A stretch of 41,495 nt of DNA, from positions 1 through 41,495 of the forward strand of contig JAZGDW010000151.1 of NCBI GenBank assembly GCA_036478295.1, given 5' to 3'. Shown one piece after another: positions 5,044 to 14,197 of the stretch. The translations under genes were made by a program, and so were the position numbers. The stretch is from Candidatus Krumholzibacteriia bacterium. GTDB taxonomy: Bacteria > Krumholzibacteriota > Krumholzibacteriia > WVZY01. The first letter of the stretch is position 1, and every line of letters starts with the position of its first letter. The notes beneath the pieces were generated by a model. The model was given only the letters and a program-made list of their open reading frames with translations. It did no database searches and was not told the origin of the DNA.

Positions 5044-5060
5044 CGCAAAGAATGTGCCAA
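5044..5060 (-). promoter_or_regulatory. Sigma54 (-24/-12) promoter upstream of mglA
   Basis: Minus strand TTGGCACATTCTTTGCG = TGGCAC-N5-TTGC with exact GG-N10-GC spacing, about 145 bp before the mglA ATG. Confidence 0.7.
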
Positions 5061-5189
5061 AGAAAGCGGCGCCATCTGCGAAAAAACCGCTTAACTCCTT
5101 ATCTGAAAATCGTATACAATACTGCAATCGCCGGTACCGGGGATGCGGCCTTCGTGAACCATGCAATCCGCTCAAGTTCTTGTGATTTA

Positions 5190-6053
5190 ATGACGATAGC
5201 TCCGACGTTTTCCGCGGGATCCAACAACCGCCACCACCCGCCGCTGTCATTCGCCGTGGCTGCCGGCCTGGCGTCCGCCGTCCCCCACTGGCTGCTCTAC
5301 GCTGCCTCTCGTGTGGGAGGCGCAGTTCACTACTGCATGGCCGGGGACAAGCGGAGAAACTATCTCGCCAACACGCGATCACTCCCGAAACCGCGACGGC
5401 ACCGTCCGTGGCACGCATTTCAAAACCAGGCCCTCAACGTCCTCGAACTCCTGAAAGCGGCCAGCGAGGGGGAGGTGGCGTCGGACTTGTCCCTCCACGG
5501 CGAGCACACCATCCGCTCGGCGTTGGATCAGGGCCGCGGCCTGATCCTCACTACGTTCCATACGGGTAACTGGGAACTGGCGGGTCTCCAGCTGGCGCTC
5601 AGAGGGTATCCGGTAACCACCGTGGCCGGTGAGCAGTTACGAAAGGGTTGGTCCGATCAGGTGAAAGCGTTGAAGGAACGGTTCGGTCTGAGGATGGTCG
5701 GGCCCGGCGGCGGTGTGCGTGAACTGGTCCGCAACCTCCAAGCCAACCGGGTCGTCGCGCTGCATCTCGACGGCGACCTTTTCATCGGGGGACTCGAAGT
5801 GCTATTCTTCAACCGGCGCGTCCGGGTTCCGCGCGGCCCCGCACATCTCTCGCGGATTACCGGCGCACCGATCGCGTTTGCGTTCAGTCATCGCACCGGG
5901 AAAAGACAGCTCGAGCTTACCATCGAAAACAAAACCCCACCGCCGGCGTCGGCCGACGAAGAGCTGCGGTTGACACAGCGTCTCGTCACGCGCGTGGAGG
6001 AGCGCATCACCGAGGCGCCTGGGCAGTGGTGTATTTTTCGCCGGATCGAGTAA
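5190..6053 (+). CDS. Lysophospholipid/glycolipid acyltransferase (PatA/LpxL family)
   Basis: GRGLILTTFHTGNWELAG, V-x-FF...PRGPA-x-L, PGQW motifs; ATG 5190 chosen, start uncertain. Confidence 0.8.
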   Translation: MTIAPTFSAGSNNRHHPPLSFAVAAGLASAVPHWLLYAASRVGGAVHYCMAGDKRRNYLANTRSLPKPRRHRPWHAFQNQALNVLELLKAASEGEVASDLSLHGEHTIRSALDQGRGLILTTFHTGNWELAGLQLALRGYPVTTVAGEQLRKGWSDQVKALKERFGLRMVGPGGGVRELVRNLQANRVVALHLDGDLFIGGLEVLFFNRRVRVPRGPAHLSRITGAPIAFAFSHRTGKRQLELTIENKTPPPASADEELRLTQRLVTRVEERITEAPGQWCIFRRIE

Positions 6054-6069
6054 CGGAAAAGACAACTAC

Positions 6070-7245
6070 ATGAAGCTCGTTATTGTTTCCCAGTCGTACC
6101 ACCCCCGCCCGGGCGGCGTAACCGAGAATGTGTATCATTCCGCCGAGGTGTTGCGGCAGCGCGGCCATCGGGTAACGGTCGTCACCACCCATTTCGAAAG
6201 TCGGGACAACGGAAGTCACCCGGAACCCGACGTCGTCCGTATCGGCAGGAACGTCCTGGCACCCGTGAACGGCGCGTGGGTAAACGTCACCGTCGGCCAT
6301 GGCATTTACGGCAGACTGAAAGAGGTTCTGCATTCGCTCGACCCCGACGTCATTCACACGCATTGCCCCGCCGCTCCCACCCTGCCGTTGATGGCGCTGC
6401 TCGCGGCGCCGGCCCGTAGTCGTGTCGTGGGTACGTTCCACGCCGCGGGCAGGAGCATCATGGGATACCACCTCTTCAAACCGGTCATTCGACGTCTCCT
6501 CCAGCGTATCGACCGCAGGATCGCCGTGTCGAACGCCGCGATGGATCTTGCCAGCCGTTATTTCCCCGGTATGTACGACGTCATCCCCAACGGGGTCGAC
6601 TGCCGTCGATTTGCGCCGGAGCACCTGCCGCTGGATCATCTCCGGGATGACGCCTTCAACGTGCTTTTTGTGGGGCGCATGGACAAACGCAAGGGGCTGA
6701 AGTATCTCTTCCGTGCCGTCGCCTCCCTGGCCGGACGCACGTCCAGGCGGCTGCGTTTGATCGTGGTGGGCGATGACGGGCCGCGGCGCCATCTTCTTCC
6801 GGGCCTGCCCGGGAGAGTGGATCTCGTTTACACCGGTGTGGTGTCCAAGGATGAGCTGCCCCGATACCTTGCGTCGGGTGACGTGCTGTGTTCACCCGCC
6901 ACCGAGCGCGAAAGCTTTGGCATCGTCCTGCTGGAAGCCATGGCTTCCGGCATCCCCGTCATTGGCACCGGCATTCCTGGTTATCTGACCATCCTGCGCG
7001 ACGGCTGGAACTCGCTGGTGGTTCCCGCCAGGGACGCGCGCTCGTTGTCAGAATCAATCGAGAAGCTCATGAACGATGAGACTCTGCGCTGGAAACTTCG
7101 TAGCAACGCGCTGGACTTTGCGCAACTCTACCGATGGGACCGCATCGTCGACCGGTTGGAGGCGGTGTACCGCAGCGAACCAGCGGACGAGGTCGACCTG
7201 GTGCCTGCGTCGGCGACACCTTTCGCGCGGGCGCAGAAAGCGTAA
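6070..7245 (+). CDS. GT4 glycosyltransferase, PimA-like (phosphatidylinositol mannosyltransferase)
   Basis: PGGV, PVNG, DVIHTHCP, VGTFH, RIAVS, IPNGVD, GR..RKG and ESFGIVLLEAMA are colinear with PimA as recalled. Confidence 0.8.
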   Translation: MKLVIVSQSYHPRPGGVTENVYHSAEVLRQRGHRVTVVTTHFESRDNGSHPEPDVVRIGRNVLAPVNGAWVNVTVGHGIYGRLKEVLHSLDPDVIHTHCPAAPTLPLMALLAAPARSRVVGTFHAAGRSIMGYHLFKPVIRRLLQRIDRRIAVSNAAMDLASRYFPGMYDVIPNGVDCRRFAPEHLPLDHLRDDAFNVLFVGRMDKRKGLKYLFRAVASLAGRTSRRLRLIVVGDDGPRRHLLPGLPGRVDLVYTGVVSKDELPRYLASGDVLCSPATERESFGIVLLEAMASGIPVIGTGIPGYLTILRDGWNSLVVPARDARSLSESIEKLMNDETLRWKLRSNALDFAQLYRWDRIVDRLEAVYRSEPADEVDLVPASATPFARAQKA

Positions 7246-9064: not shown

Positions 9065-9678
9065 TAGAAGACCTTTTGCCCTTCGGCGAGGATCTCGTTC
9101 AGCGCTTCTTTGAAGTAATCCGTGGACTTGGCGACATCGGCCCCGACCTTTTCCTTATAGAGCTCCCAAGATTTCTTGATCTCGTCACCCAGGACCGTCA
9201 TCAGGTTGCCGTCGATCAGCGCCTGGTCACGTTTTTCCTGGTTGTAGCAGAGGATATCCGACACCAGAACACGGGCCAGGCGTCTGGCCCTGGCCTCCTT
9301 ACGGTTGTTCTTTCCGGGCGCTTGCGGCCGCGGCTGGCTTACCTCGCTCGGCCTTGGGGTGGTCGGAGCAGCTACGGGGGCTGCCGCGGCTACTGGAGCG
9401 GCTTGAGCGGGTTTAGGGGTGGTCCCGGCCACTGGAGCGGCTTGAGCGGGTTTGGGGGCGGTCCCGGCTACTGGAGCGGCTTGAGCGGGTTTGGGGGCGG
9501 TCCCGGCTACCGGAGCGGCCGGAGCGGCAGGTTTCTTGGCGGTAGCGGCCACCACCGTTGGCGGCACCAGGGTGAACACGGCCCGGCACTGCGGACATCT
9601 CACCTTGACCGGATTCTCGGGGATCTTTGACTCCGGTAGAAAGTACTTCGCCGCACAGCCTTCACATCGAACGATCAT
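9064..9678 (-). CDS. Zinc-ribbon (MJ0042-like) + Pro/Ala linker + RomX-like domain protein
   Basis: N-terminal CEGC...RCPQC; C-terminal RLARVLVSDILCYNQEK...NLMTVLGDEIKKSWELYKEKV...F..ALNEIL matches the RomX pattern as recalled. Confidence 0.8.
   Translation of the reverse strand: MIVRCEGCAAKYFLPESKIPENPVKVRCPQCRAVFTLVPPTVVAATAKKPAAPAAPVAGTAPKPAQAAPVAGTAPKPAQAAPVAGTTPKPAQAAPVAAAAPVAAPTTPRPSEVSQPRPQAPGKNNRKEARARRLARVLVSDILCYNQEKRDQALIDGNLMTVLGDEIKKSWELYKEKVGADVAKSTDYFKEALNEILAEGQKVF
9388..9519. repeat. About 3.4 x 39-bp coding tandem repeat (PKPAQAAPVAGTA)
   Basis: Units start at 9388, 9427, 9466, with a partial unit at 9505. Confidence 0.9.
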
Positions 9679-9796
9679 CGGGATACCTTTGTCATTGGTC
9701 TCTGAGATTCATGCCAAGGTTCTAAAATGCACGCGTTTCAACAATTCGCAACGATCGCGAGCAACCGCGGGGCCACCATGGCCGCCTGCGGAAACA

Positions 9797-9826: not shown

Positions 9827-11926
9827 TCAGCCAACCGGCTGTGACAGGCCGCCCGTCTGTGTCTCCTGCAGGTATTCACGGCAAAGGCGCGCTTCGGGAC
9901 TATCGAGGCGAGGATCCGCGGCCATCAGCCTCTTGACGTGGCGCGCCGCGATCTCTACCAGGCGCTGGTCCACCGCCGGGTTTGCGACCTTGAGCCCCGG
10001 GACACCGTGCTGCCGTACGCCGAGGAATTCTCCCGGGCCCCGGATGCGAAGATCCTCCTCGGCGATGCGGAAACCATCATCGATCCGGTCGAGAATCCCC
10101 AGGCGCTCGCGCCCGATGCGTGAAGTACCCTCACCAAGCAGCAGAAAGCAGAACCCGCGCTCTCGTCCCCGTCCCACGCGGCCGCGTAGTTGGTGCAGCT
10201 GGGAGAGGCCATAACGTTCGGGATGATGAACCACCATGATGGTCGCCTCGGGGACGTGGACGCCGACCTCCACCACAGTCGTCGTCACTAGCAGTCGGAT
10301 GCGGCCGGCGGCGAAATCTGCCATGGCGGCTTCCTTCTCGGCGAAGACCATCCGCCCGTGGAGAAGGCCCACCGGCTGATCCCTGAAGGTGGTCCGTGAC
10401 AGCTCCTCGTAGGCAGAGACCGCCGCCTCGAGGTCCTGTTTCTCCGTCTCTTCGATCGCCGGATATAGAAAGTAGGCGCGGGCACCTCCCTCCAGCTTGT
10501 CGCGGACGAATTCGTACATTGCTTCCTTTTTTTCCGGTGCCACCAGCCTCGTCTTCACCCCGGAACGCCCCGGCGGCATCTCGTCGATAACGGACAAGTC
10601 CAGATCCGCGTACGCGGTCAAGGCCAGCGTGCGGGGGATCGGGGTTGCGGTCATTACCAGCAAGTGCGGGTTCCGATTCCGCGTGAGCAGGGCCGCGCGC
10701 TGGCGAACACCGAAACGGTGTTGCTCATCAACGACCACCACGCCGAGGCGGTCGAAAGTGACACCTTCCTGGATCAGGGCGTGGGTTCCGACCACCACCC
10801 GCGCAGTGCCGGCCGCTATATCAGCGTGAATGGCCCGCTTTTCGGCGGGCTTCAGCGAGCCGATCAACAACGACACGGGCACGTCGACCTCGTCAAAAAA
10901 TCCGGCGAGGGTCCGAGCGTGCTGCACCGCCAGGATTTCGGTCGGCACCATCAAGGCGCCTTGATGACCGGCTTCCACCGCCGCCAACATGGCCGCGCCA
11001 GCGACAATGGTCTTGCCCGAACCCACGTCCCCCTGAAGCAGGCGGTGCATGCCACGCTCGCTGGTCAGGTCGTTGTGGATCTCATCCAGCGTCCTGCGTT
11101 GCGCCGCGGTCAGTTCGAACGGCAGGGCGTCGATATAGCGTTTCTCCAGCTCGAACCCGCCATTCAGGCGCGGCCGATCACGCTGGTCCAGATGGCGCCG
11201 CCGCTGCAGCGACAGCACGAGTTGCAGATAAAACAGCTCTTCAATTTTGAGGCGTCTCAACGCCTCCTTGAAGTGCGTGCCGTCTTCAGGGAAATGGATT
11301 CCCTGCAGGGCCTGCCGCCGGCCGCATAGCTTCTCGGCCCGCATGAGACCGGCCGGCAGGTTTTCACGAATGAGATCTCCGAACTCGCGCAACCCTCTCG
11401 CGATGAGCTCCCTGAGAAACAGTTGCGAGACACCACGGGTGAGCGAATAGACGGGAACTACACGGCCCGTGTGAAGGAGTTCGGCGTCTAGCGCCTCCTC
11501 CAGCACTTCGAACTCCGGATTCACCACCTCCCTGGCCCCACGAAAGTAGGTCAGGGTGCCGGAGAAAATCGCTTCGTTCCCCGGTTTGAGGTGTCTGGCG
11601 AGGTAGGGCTGGTTGAACCACACAATCTGGACGATGCCGGTGTCGTCGCCCACCGCGGCTGCGATGCGCGACCGGCGGCCATGGCGGCCCCTCGGTTGGG
11701 CAACCGTCAGGATCTGGCCGAGGAAACACGTTTCTTCACCAATATTTAAGTCCTTGATTTTGGATAGGTTACGACGATCGTAGTACGTGCGCGGGAAATG
11801 CGTCAGCAACTCCTCGACAGTTTCGATCCCGAGCTTGCGCAGCCGCTGCGCGCGAACCGGTCCTACACCCTTGAGGAACTGGCACAGATCCGCCAGACCA
11901 CGCTGTCGCTTTTCAGGTCGCACCAC
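9827..11926 (-). CDS. recG: ATP-dependent DNA helicase RecG
   Basis: [53 protein letters not shown] start after AAGGAGG. Confidence 0.97.
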
Positions 11927-11936
11927 CTCGTCCTCC

Positions 11937-11989
11937 TTGCCAACGGCGTGCACATTTGCTATCTTAGGTGAAATTTACTGGGAGGTCTA
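11937..11989. promoter_or_regulatory. Bidirectional sigma70 promoter for rpmB/recG
   Basis: Plus strand: TTGCCA (11937-42), 17 bp, TGn-TATCTT (11960-65). Minus strand: TAGACC (11989-84), 17 bp, TAAGAT (11966-61). Confidence 0.6.
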
Positions 11990-11993
11990 TAAA

Positions 11994-12185
11994 ATGAGTC
12001 GTAAGTGTGCGGTATGTGAAAAGAAGCCGATGACGGGCAACACCGTAAGCCACGCGCACAATCTGAACAAGCGCCGGTGGCTACCCAACCTGCAGAAAAT
12101 CACGGTCGAGCTCAAGGGCAAAGTCAAGAACGTCTACGTCTGCACTTCTTGTATCCGGTCCGGCAAGGTACGAAAAGTCGTCTAG
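11994..12185 (+). CDS. rpmB: 50S ribosomal protein L28 (Zn-binding C+ form)
   Basis: [44 protein letters not shown]. Confidence 0.97.
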
Positions 12186-12302
12186 GCCGGTCTTCCCTTC
12201 TCTGAAAGCTACCCACTGTCACTCGCTTAAAGCCGATTCTGAGGCCGAAGGTTTATCGGCAAGACATCGCTTGAGATAACCGACTGCGGCAAGGGCCAGA
12301 GT

Positions 12303-12330
12303 CGCTCATGGTGCCCACGCACCACGAGCG
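12303..12330. other. Intergenic hairpin
   Basis: CGCTC-a-TGGTGC-ccac-GCACCA-c-GAGCG; the A/C mismatch becomes G-U on the minus strand. Confidence 0.45.
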
Positions 12331-12336
12331 GTGACG

Positions 12337-12365
12337 TTGACATCCCTCGGGTTTGCGTCTACACT
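12337..12365 (+). promoter_or_regulatory. Near-consensus sigma70 promoter driving a candidate sRNA
   Basis: TTGACA (12337-42), 17 bp, TACACT (12360-65). Confidence 0.75.
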
Positions 12366-12371
12366 AAACAT

Positions 12372-12488
12372 GGAAGGATTCTCTGAGAGCTGGTGTGCCG
12401 CATTATCTGGGACGAAACTTTAATTCCTCTTCCTGTGTTCTCGATCCAAGAAATCGGCCACTCTTTCAAGGGAATCCTTCCGTTTTTT
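12372..12488 (+). ncRNA. Candidate ~117-nt structured sRNA of unknown family
   Basis: Starts at the predicted TSS; 5' GGAAGGATTC pairs perfectly with GAATCCTTCC (12472-81) followed by T6; long imperfect rod with G-U pairs on the plus strand; pyrimidine-rich loop. Confidence 0.6.
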
Positions 12489-12530
12489 CGGTTCGACAGT
12501 GCCTGCGACACCGGCGCCGCCGGCGAGTAG

Positions 12531-14183
12531 TCAGACCTCTTCCAGTTTCATCCGTTCCTGTGTGAGCAGAATTCGCGCGGCCAGGTCCGCAGGGTTTCGT
12601 CGCAGATATGCCTGCAGGATATGATCGGCCTCTTTGCCCCGACCGAGGCGCCGCATCGCGACGACCAGACCCTGCACGGCGTCCGAGTAATTGCGGTTGA
12701 TCGACAAACTGGATTCGTACTCCTCAAGGGCCTGTGACAGGTTATCGGTTTGGAAATGAATGTCGCCGAGGATCTTGTGCAGGTCGGCGTAGTCCTGGTG
12801 CAGCTCCAGCGCGTCCGTGATCAGCGACTCGGCACGGTCATATTTTTTGCGCTTGAAATAGACGAGTGCGAGTTGCTTCTTCGCCTCGATGTATTCCGGG
12901 TTGATCTCCAGCGCCGTCTTGAGATGTTTCTCGGCCGTCCCGAGTTCATCCCGCTCGAGGTACACGCCCCCGAGAAAACAGAGTGCGTCGGCATGCTTGG
13001 GATTCCTACCCACGACCCGCTCGAAACACTCCGCCGCCTCTTGCCAGTCCGATGCCCTGAGCCGCTCGACGCCCAGATCGAGGTCGAGCGCGAACAGGTT
13101 CGGATCCAGCGTCAGCGATTGTTTGAACTCCTGGTTGGCGCCCGATTCATCCTGGAGCGCGTGTAGCGTGAGTCCCAACATGTAGTGGGCACGCGCGTAG
13201 TCAGGCGAAAGCTCCAACGCTCTCTGCAGTCGTTCCTTTGCTTTGGCGTACTCGCCTAGCGAGAGGTGGACGATACCCAATTGGCACTGGATATCGGAGT
13301 ATCCCGGTTTTTGTGACACCGCTTTGACCAGGCATTCTCGACTCGAAGCGTAGTCGTGGCGCCGGTACTGCATGACCCCGAGACAATAGAGTCCCTCCGC
13401 GTAGTCGGGATTGCATCCCACCGAGCGTTTGAAGCACTCGACGGCCCGTTCCTCCTTGCCACAGTGGAGATAGGACAGCCCGAGCCTGCATTGCAGGTCC
13501 GCGTAGTCGGGCTTGAGCGTGGCGGCTTCACCGAAACAAACCACGGCCTGATCGTAATCTCCGCGGTTGAAGGCACTGTTTCCCTCTTTTATCTGATTCT
13601 GAAAACTGGAGTTCTCCATCACCACCCGCTTCAGCTCCTGAAGCTGGGGGTGTTCAAAAGAACGTGAATCGAGCTTTTCCACCAACAGACGGCTGAGCGG
13701 ATTCGGTGCTATCCGGGTCAGCTCGAGCGCCCGTGAGAAGCACTGGCTCGCCTGATCGAAGAAGCCCGCGTCGTGCAGGGCAATGCCCAGATAACACGTG
13801 GCCTCGGCGTACTCGGAGTTCAATTCGACCGCTTTGGTCAAATGTTCGATCGCCGAATCCAGATCGTCTTTTTGGTGATAAACGACGCCGAGGTAGTAGT
13901 AGAGGTCGGGGTAGTGGGGATTGACGGTCAGCGCCGTTTTGAAATGGCCGCGCGCCCGGTCCAGTCTGCCGCGGTAGAATTCGGCCATCCCCAGCTTGCT
14001 GTGCGCTTCCGCCGCGTAGAAAGCCCCCAGCTTTGCGATGGCGCTATCGCGACTCTTCTCACCGGCAACAACCTTTTCCAGATATTCTACGGCTCGATCG
14101 TAGTCGCCCTCGTTGAAGTACCGTATTCCCTTCTGGTAGTGTTCGCTGGCAGAGCTTCTAAAAAGCCTGCTCCAGAGAGACAA
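12531..14183 (-). CDS. Large TPR protein (about 550 aa) immediately downstream of ftsZ
   Basis: About 14 TPR units (P-x-YADL, YYLG); TTG 14183 with GGAGG RBS, 14 nt after the ftsZ stop. Confidence 0.9.
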   Translation of the reverse strand: MSLWSRLFRSSASEHYQKGIRYFNEGDYDRAVEYLEKVVAGEKSRDSAIAKLGAFYAAEAHSKLGMAEFYRGRLDRARGHFKTALTVNPHYPDLYYYLGVVYHQKDDLDSAIEHLTKAVELNSEYAEATCYLGIALHDAGFFDQASQCFSRALELTRIAPNPLSRLLVEKLDSRSFEHPQLQELKRVVMENSSFQNQIKEGNSAFNRGDYDQAVVCFGEAATLKPDYADLQCRLGLSYLHCGKEERAVECFKRSVGCNPDYAEGLYCLGVMQYRRHDYASSRECLVKAVSQKPGYSDIQCQLGIVHLSLGEYAKAKERLQRALELSPDYARAHYMLGLTLHALQDESGANQEFKQSLTLDPNLFALDLDLGVERLRASDWQEAAECFERVVGRNPKHADALCFLGGVYLERDELGTAEKHLKTALEINPEYIEAKKQLALVYFKRKKYDRAESLITDALELHQDYADLHKILGDIHFQTDNLSQALEEYESSLSINRNYSDAVQGLVVAMRRLGRGKEADHILQAYLRRNPADLAARILLTQERMKLEEV

Positions 14184-14197
14184 GCGTACCTCCAAAT

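Follow-up and report, generated by a model that had tools for sequence, protein, structure and literature searches.

The window analyzed here is a contig of 41,495 nucleotides (JAZGDW010000151.1, assembly GCA_036478295.1) from a Candidatus Krumholzibacteriia bacterium, whose genome, 90.9% complete, is called G000 below. At 12372-12488 of its plus strand it carries a small RNA (sRNA) gene, which we named RNA A. This gene lies between rpmB (ribosomal protein L28; Pfam PF00830; 11994-12185, plus strand), its conserved upstream neighbor, and a TPR-repeat gene following ftsZ (12531-14195, minus strand), which is also conserved and is convergent with RNA A. recG (9827-11953, minus strand) flanks the locus, and ftsZ and ftsA lie beyond the TPR gene. 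As set out below, the apical loop of RNA A is complementary to sites in two further conserved RNAs encoded outside the window, RNA B and RNA C, and RNA A and RNA C likely bind and neutralize each other.

A −35 box, TTGACA (12337-12342), and a −10 box, TACACT (12360-12365), are separated by a 17-nt spacer and predict a transcription start site (TSS) at G12372. Promoter-like sites in this region numbered 3, against 0.6 expected from shuffled sequences. The predicted TSS opens the 5′ arm of a 10-bp closing stem, GGAAGGATTC (GGAAGGAUUC; 12372-12381), which pairs with the 3′ arm GAATCCTTCC (GAAUCCUUCC; 12472-12481). The 3′ arm is followed by a G and a T6 run (12483-12488), a predicted intrinsic terminator, and the 3′ end of the rod-shaped RNA of about 115 nt is predicted at this U-tract. 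The minimum free energy (MFE) structure of 12372-12488 is one long rod (−47.7 kcal/mol, z −5.18; none of 200 shuffles was as good), whereas the opposite strand folds worse (−37.2 kcal/mol, z −2.93). In this structure the 18-nt apical loop UUUAAUUCCUCUUCCUGU (12419-12436) is unpaired, and within it the core CCUCUUCCUG (12426-12435) was identical in all 29 homologues described below. Across these homologues, paired positions held 71 G-U cells versus 25 A-C cells, the U11-G108 pair was invariant, and the plus strand folded better in 21 of the 29. An earlier note on this DNA had named the promoter, the closing stem with its U6 tract, the rod-like fold with a loop of about 18 nt, G-U pairs that work only on the plus strand, and convergence on the 3′ end of the dcw-TPR transcript; all of these features were confirmed where it had placed them.

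We searched for known RNAs at the locus. No Rfam 15 family reached its gathering score anywhere in the window, and a permissive scan of 12150-12600 (E up to 10) gave two matches only, both at chance level. The novelty claimed for RNA A with respect to Rfam was thus upheld. The statement that it is neither an SRP nor a 6S RNA was borne out as well, because both genes were located on other contigs of G000: the bacterial small SRP RNA (RF00169; 70.4 bits) on contig C249 and the 6S RNA (RF00013; 77.4 bits) on contig C240. A coding reading of RNA A was rejected by eye, since indels are not multiples of three and conservation tracks the helices and the loop.

To describe its distribution, we refer to the family of the window as f1 and to its sister family as f2, both in one order of Krumholzibacteriota; the order set comprised 36 genomes (G000, 12 other f1 and 23 f2). 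A DNA search of 41 related genomes found RNA A in 12 of the 12 other f1 genomes and in 2 of the 23 f2 genomes. A covariance model (CM) was built from 15 sequences and matched the window at 12372-12489 with 121.3 bits. With this model, RNA A was detected in 29 of the 36 genomes of the order (12/12 f1 and 16/23 f2, G000 apart), one copy each; two matches were recorded in G009. The genomes without a CM match were G013, G034, G024, G031, G022, G026 and G028. G013 has a divergent syntenic copy (26 bits) preceded by a TTGACA-17-TAGACT promoter of its own, the contigs of G034 and G024 break off at the TPR gene, and the TPR gene was not found in G031 and G022.

Beyond the order, a phylum sample of 151 genomes gave CM matches in 21, all of them f1 or f2, and none in the 126 sampled genomes from seven other families. 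A search for a diverged homologue 3′ of rpmB in other families (23 loci) found none; these intervals gave only terminator-like hairpins (E at least 0.18). A pattern scan of the genomes of 185,579 species returned 28 loci, of which 22 passed the CM at 57.8 bits or more. Most of the 22 were labelled Candidatus Krumholzibacteriia or Latescibacterota, with one Chitinivibrionia and one 'beta proteobacterium'. The last two (L051 and L058) carry full-scoring copies of RNA A (103.7 and 83.8 bits, respectively), and their taxonomic labels are probably wrong. The six loci that failed the CM were discarded as chance matches in unrelated taxa.

The homologue search and covariation analysis of the rpmB-TPR interval, which the earlier note had proposed as a check, revealed a conserved, covarying rod. 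Among the 29 aligned homologues, 87.2% of 876 cells were paired in the rod, and in 19 of its 31 helix pairs both partners varied (96 cells). Covariation scored 0.305, against 0.143 for shuffles (0 of 500 reached the observed score) and at most 0.105 with partners slid, in an alignment that was fitted to the CM structure and so favors that structure. Covarying pairs included 1-118, 2-117, 4-115 and 8-111 of the closing stem. A promoter of the sigma-70 type, TTGAC[AG]-17-TAnAnT, was present at all 28 loci with enough upstream sequence. Read from the alignments, a T-run of at least four directly follows the stem in 19 of 28 homologues, and several f1 members have an extra small hairpin in its place. 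The gene order recG(−) rpmB(+) RNA A(+) TPR or ftsZ(−) was kept in nearly all loci; the downstream gene was convergent at all loci examined, its stop codon lying −13 to +146 nt from the end of the RNA A stem.

The promoter spacer (window 12343-12359) also contains a conserved element: f1 keeps TTTTG(C/T) about 5 nt upstream of the −10 box, where f2 promoters keep AACGTG or AACCTG. It may serve as a binding site for a regulator or extend the promoter.

These features argue that RNA A is a real, uncatalogued sRNA gene of one order of uncultured bacteria. Equipped with what appear to be its own promoter and terminator, and not the leader of a downstream gene, it has the organization of a trans-acting sRNA. 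The idea of a free-standing, structured plus-strand RNA gene with an apical loop as base-pairing module was therefore supported. The other possibility raised earlier, a 'housekeeping RNA', found no support as a protein-binding RNA, and RNA A is confined to one order.

To find partners of RNA A, we searched the order for the 13-nt complement of its loop, allowing at most one mismatch. Most of the extra 13-mer matches in the relatives were rejected as coding sequence (TTC CTC TTC CTG encodes F-L-F-L, and the other strand Q-E-E-E). Some matches sat in conserved non-coding DNA, including an element that we named RNA C (loci L188 and L218; G000 contig C93, about 5045-5345, plus strand), located after selB and a small secreted-protein gene. 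In DNA searches, every one of the 36 genomes of the order had RNA C, against none of the 126 genomes sampled from other families. A −24/−12 element, TGGCA[CT]-N5-TTGC, lies 62-73 nt upstream of the pairing site in 27 of the 28 RNA C loci with upstream sequence, and the 28th has a near-match by eye. In G000 this sigma-54-type promoter reads TGGCACAATAGTTGC, and sigma-54 is encoded in the genome. RNA C is about 270 nt long and structured (MFE z −4.66 in G000), with the pairing site about 50 nt into the RNA and a 64-nt core that is 89-100% identical across f1 and f2. After the core comes a GC-rich hairpin with a T-run, a predicted intrinsic terminator. Because a convergent gene lies downstream in most genomes, we take RNA C to be a free-standing RNA of about 270 nt. 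It had no match in Rfam and no convincing open reading frame (ORF), and its promoter, terminator and conservation pattern suggest that it is non-coding. In the MFE structure of G000, the GGAAGAGGGAAC portion of the pairing site is unpaired, and the remainder of the site is formed by the 3′ arm of a hairpin that immediately precedes it. Across 12 genomes the 5′ part of RNA C yielded no consensus structure, the alignment being too divergent, so the accessibility of the site is judged from the single MFE of G000.

We then analyzed the complementarity between the two RNAs. The stretch of RNA A that pairs with the RNA C site (12424-12441) covers offsets −2 to +15 from the first base of the invariant core, and pairs were counted without gaps from this core in 24 genomes. 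Offsets 0 and 3 to 11 were paired in all 24 genomes, offsets −2, 13 and 15 in 23, offset 12 in 22 and offset 14 in 21. Several of these pairs were kept by different bases (RNA A base first): at offset 11, 10 genomes had G-C and 14 had A-U; at offset 12, 16 had U-A, three C-G and three U-G; at offset 13, 10 had U-A and 13 had C-G; at offset 15, 11 had C-G, 11 U-G and one U-A. Complementarity thus spans some 18 positions, three of which (offsets 11, 12 and 13) show compensatory double changes. A conserved seed therefore faces an unlinked complementary site with compensatory change, as expected of a trans-acting sRNA. The flanks vary as haplotypes (RNA A loop/RNA C site). In f1 these are GUGUUC/GAACAC, GUGCUC/GAGCAC and GUGUUC/GAGCAC; in f2 they are GUAUCCC/GGGAUAC in most genomes, GUAUCCU/AGGAUAC in G017 and GUACCC/GGGUAC in G030. 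Over offsets 10-15, seven of the 11 distinct flank haplotypes pair at every position.

The predicted duplexes of the RNA A loop and the RNA C site had energies of −33.5 to −44.5 kcal/mol in all 22 genomes tested. Cognate pairs had a mean of 16.9 of 18 positions paired and −36.9 kcal/mol, whereas non-cognate pairs across families (286 combinations) had 15.8 of 18 and −31.3 kcal/mol. We also ranked the 2538 windows of G000 that contain an 8-nt seed match to the loop: the strongest duplex was formed by the opposite strand of the RNA A gene itself, followed by the RNA C site (−36.9 kcal/mol) and then by contig C107, which carries RNA B (−33.0 kcal/mol).

RNA B (L232; f2 loci L158-L177) is encoded on the minus strand of G000 contig C107, at 6768-6897 and flanks. 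DNA similarity identified it in 22 of 23 f2 genomes, and 2 of 12 f1 genomes gave short, marginal matches; with a query derived from G000, it was recovered from G000 itself and from five further f1 genomes. RNA B is about 200 nt long. Its segments GAAGCCGGUGCCG and CGGCACCGGCUUC form a long helix, the stretches GACAUGCGGCAACCG and AGUCCCCACC are conserved, and it ends in a hairpin whose U-rich tail defines its strand as the one carrying CAGGAAG(A/G)GGAAAC. In f2 it is divergent from a LysR-type regulator gene. It had no match in Rfam, and as with RNA C, its promoter, terminator and conservation pattern point to a non-coding RNA. RNA B carries a 12-15-nt complement to the RNA A loop, and all 15 f2 genomes that have both RNAs showed pairing at offsets −2 to +9. 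Beyond this core the evidence for covariation appears thin: at offset −3, seven genomes had U-A, two C-G and one U-G, and five were unpaired. The f1 RNA B sites carry bulges; RNA C has GGAAGAUG in seven genomes. Comparison across genomes thus supports two conserved non-coding RNAs as partners of the RNA A loop, above all RNA C, whose site covaries with it. RNA A and RNA C present extended complementarity at what appear to be accessible regions of two non-coding RNAs, as in known sponge pairs.

On these grounds we favor, with some reserve, a model in which the RNA A loop binds the RNA C site as a duplex of 18-25 bp that titrates or destroys one or both RNAs. The exposed pyrimidine loop of RNA A would start pairing on the single-stranded GGAAGAGG tract of RNA C, and pairing would then extend into the adjacent hairpin to 18-25 bp. 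Such a long duplex would sequester both RNAs and could be a substrate for RNase III, which is encoded in G000. RNA A was not assigned to the Hfq-dependent sRNAs: no Hfq (PF17209) was found in G000, a genome whose 90.9% completeness leaves the absence of the protein unproven. Since no Hfq was found, pairing would depend on the rod to present the loop. RNA A would be made constitutively from its near-consensus promoter, and RNA C only when a sigma-54 activator fires; with one RNA constitutive and the other on a sigma-54 signal, the two would antagonize each other or set a stoichiometric threshold. Among RNAs A, B and C we lean very slightly toward RNA A as the hub: conservation is stricter in its loop than at the RNA B and RNA C sites, and the strictest conservation is expected of the member with the most partners.

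Several observations weigh against this model. For all three RNAs, the TSSs, 3′ ends and strands are predictions based on G-U counts and on the motifs of promoters and terminators. Most of the RNA A-RNA C duplex is invariant, so that covariation falls on three to four flank positions with few independent events, and the split between f1 and f2 accounts for much of it. The advantage of cognate over non-cognate pairs is modest (16.9 versus 15.8 of 18). Within the stretch, offset −1 was paired in 14 of 24 genomes, offset 1 in 17, with a C-U mismatch in seven genomes, and offset 2 in 23, with a mismatch in one. In G013 pairing is limited to the 12-nt core, and in G008, where both the loop flank and the site differ from those of all other genomes, the two pair in a shifted register only. 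The best duplex in G000 (−36.9 kcal/mol) is close to the field, whose 1st percentile is −29.1 kcal/mol. The consequence of pairing, be it titration, cleavage or their direction, we infer entirely. Finally, part of the pattern could also arise if the motif were a shared DNA site of a single binding protein; this is countered by the non-Watson-Crick cells at offsets −2 to 15, of which 34 of 60 are G-U-compatible, always with the U in RNA A.

Among other explanations, the one that survives best casts RNA A as a global sRNA acting in trans, with a CU-rich loop that blocks the purine-rich Shine-Dalgarno (SD) sequences of many mRNAs, and with RNA B and RNA C as incidental partners or sponges. The earlier note had proposed such a role from the complementarity of the loop to ribosome-binding sites (RBSs). 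The loop does contain CCUC, like the anti-SD of 16S rRNA (the 16S rRNA of G015 ends GGAUCACCUCCUUU), and the SDs of G000 are of the GGAGG type. Because these ordinary RBSs are used, any CU-rich 21-mer finds many partners, and the complementary sites were not enriched. In 2519 start regions of G000, duplexes of −20 kcal/mol or better numbered 82 for the loop, 93 for the reversed loop and 18-62 for six shuffles. Similarly, perfect 8-mers before in-frame start codons numbered 22 for the loop and 14-52 for nine controls. The start regions of the neighboring genes (TPR, ftsZ, ftsA, recG and rpmB) paired weakly with the loop (−9 to −14 kcal/mol), and no site in a 5′ untranslated region (UTR) was among the top genome-wide duplexes of G000. 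These scans covered one genome with crude gene calls and remain compatible with a few specific mRNA targets. Seed matches in G000 are thus not concentrated at RBSs, as they would be for an SD-occluding sRNA of the RsaE/RoxS or CcsR kind, and the proposed trans-acting SD-occluding role was not borne out. The loop as a target-pairing module stands with regard to the conserved non-coding RNAs C and B, which match it, and falls with regard to mRNA RBSs. The core is invariant in 29 of 29 homologues even where the RNA C site is mismatched, which suggests constraint from further partners; weighing this against the lack of enrichment, we consider global SD occlusion unlikely.

A more speculative reading, to which we give somewhat less credence than to SD occlusion, is that RNAs A, B and C, none of them catalogued, together make up an integration node that consists of RNA only and works without Hfq. 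The invariant loop of a constitutive RNA A would then be the common docking site for two larger structured RNAs, RNA B and the sigma-54-induced RNA C, and the RNA A-RNA C or RNA A-RNA B duplex would, beyond mutual destruction, be a working two-piece RNA whose assembly switches the core of RNA C or RNA B on or off.

Alternatively, RNA A could be a cis element, either because the rod is the 3′ hairpin of the convergent ftsZ-TPR operon or because RNA A pairs perfectly with a 3′ UTR of that operon extending through the RNA A gene and controls its stability. The convergent arrangement in nearly all loci fits this reading, and since the TPR gene is convergent and adjoining, any 3′ UTR of it must run into the RNA A gene. 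In many f2 loci (L036, L039, L045-L047 and others) the TPR stop codon lies inside the U-tract of RNA A or within a few bases of it, so that the two genes share their 3′ ends and any such UTR overlaps RNA A. The minus strand also folds as well or better in 8 of the 29 homologues. By contrast, no U-run follows the minus-strand hairpin in f2, and a cis element leaves unexplained the invariant loop, the invariant promoter at the base of the stem and the covarying sites in two unlinked RNAs. We therefore regard it as improbable as the main function. Judged from the position of the stop codons in f2, the TPR/ftsZ mRNA probably overlaps RNA A, and an added cis-antisense effect on the 3′ end of the dcw operon is possible.

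The notion that a single DNA-binding protein recognizes the 18-bp motif and acts at the genes for RNAs A, B and C, with the flank changes tracking the specificity of that protein, seems very improbable. The motif does lie at about +50 from the predicted start in both RNA A and RNA C, and it changes in step between f1 and f2. However, its orientation relative to transcription in RNA A is opposite to that in RNA B and RNA C, and the motif sits in the exposed loop of a covarying rod in RNA A and, in the G000 fold, in a single-stranded tract in RNA C; the G-U-compatible cells noted above also speak for pairing between RNAs. Least probable is pairing of the loop with domain I of 23S rRNA, (C/U)AGGAAGAGAA(A/G)GAAA, for instance in ribosome assembly: the location beside rpmB would fit and AGGAAGAG was present in 10 of the 10 genomes of the order with this stretch assembled (L088-L097), but two of these lack a CM match to RNA A (G013, which has the divergent copy, and G031), the 9-nt complement is much shorter than those to RNA C and RNA B and probably due to chance (by our estimate roughly a one-in-ten event in an rRNA operon), covariation is impossible, and the same 23S sequence is common in phyla lacking RNA A.

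We compared RNA A and its partners with known systems. RosA-RoxS and RsaI-RsaG/RsaE are pairs of an sRNA with another sRNA or a sponge. SroC-GcvB of Salmonella and E. coli (PMC4474525) and CjNC140-CjNC110 of Campylobacter jejuni (PMC10470494) are comparable pairs. Like them, RNA A and RNA C are two separately made RNAs with conserved complementarity, a C/U-rich single-stranded module facing a purine-rich tract, and the expected outcome would be stoichiometric mutual titration. On the other hand, RNAs A, B and C are unrelated in sequence to any of these RNAs (no Rfam match), no Hfq was found, the RNA A-RNA C duplex is unusually long (18-25 bp), one loop would serve two structured partners, and the pair was identified by covariation alone, in uncultured bacteria.

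Sigma-54-dependent sRNAs include Qrr1-5 of Vibrio. GlmY and GlmZ of Enterobacteriaceae belong to the same class (PMC4152352). RNA C resembles these in having a −24/−12 promoter, a terminator and no convincing ORF, and its induction would follow a signal relayed by an enhancer-binding protein. It differs from GlmY, a protein decoy, and from the Qrr RNAs, which act on mRNAs with Hfq, in that an antisense-like RNA encoded elsewhere, and apparently made constitutively, would be its dedicated partner.

CU-rich anti-SD seeds are known from RsaE/RoxS of Bacillota and from the CcsR or 'cuckoo' RNAs of Alphaproteobacteria, which have CCUCCUCCC loops. RNA A similarly shows a pyrimidine-rich, anti-SD-like motif in a hairpin loop, conserved across the order, whereas this motif is a single copy rather than repeats, its complementarity to RBSs is not enriched and RNA A matches no Rfam family. 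CopA and RNA I are stem-loop antisense RNAs of plasmids. As in these RNAs, a long stable stem presents the loop, and pairing would extend to a duplex cut by RNase III; unlike these RNAs, which are cis-encoded opposite their targets, RNA A is chromosomal and has its partners in trans on other contigs. In kind, RNA A is a trans-acting base-pairing sRNA with RNA partners, outside the catalogued families.

Literature searches listed no title on an RNA regulator of Krumholzibacteriota. RNAs A, B and C add three RNA families without an Rfam match from a phylum without a cultured member, and they indicate that genome sequences by themselves can reveal an RNA-RNA regulatory pair through intermolecular covariation. 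The sigma-54-controlled RNA C gains a concrete candidate partner in RNA A. If the threshold model is true, sigma-54 signaling would be buffered by a constitutive antisense-like RNA in a genome in which no Hfq was found.

One further candidate lies on G000 contig C58, at about 9490-9760 of the plus strand (L077 and L079), where a sigma-54-like promoter, TGGCACCCGAATTGCG, is located downstream of a response-regulator-like gene. Between this promoter and a downstream hairpin, G000, and G000 only, has a perfect 13-nt complement to the RNA A loop. This complement has one mismatch in G001 and is lost in four other genera, and it was rejected as a partner site of RNA A, being due to chance or specific to the genus. 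The non-coding stretch itself is conserved in six f1 genomes, with a GAGAUGrG...UUCUCAUCUC hairpin and the sequence GGGAGGAACCG.

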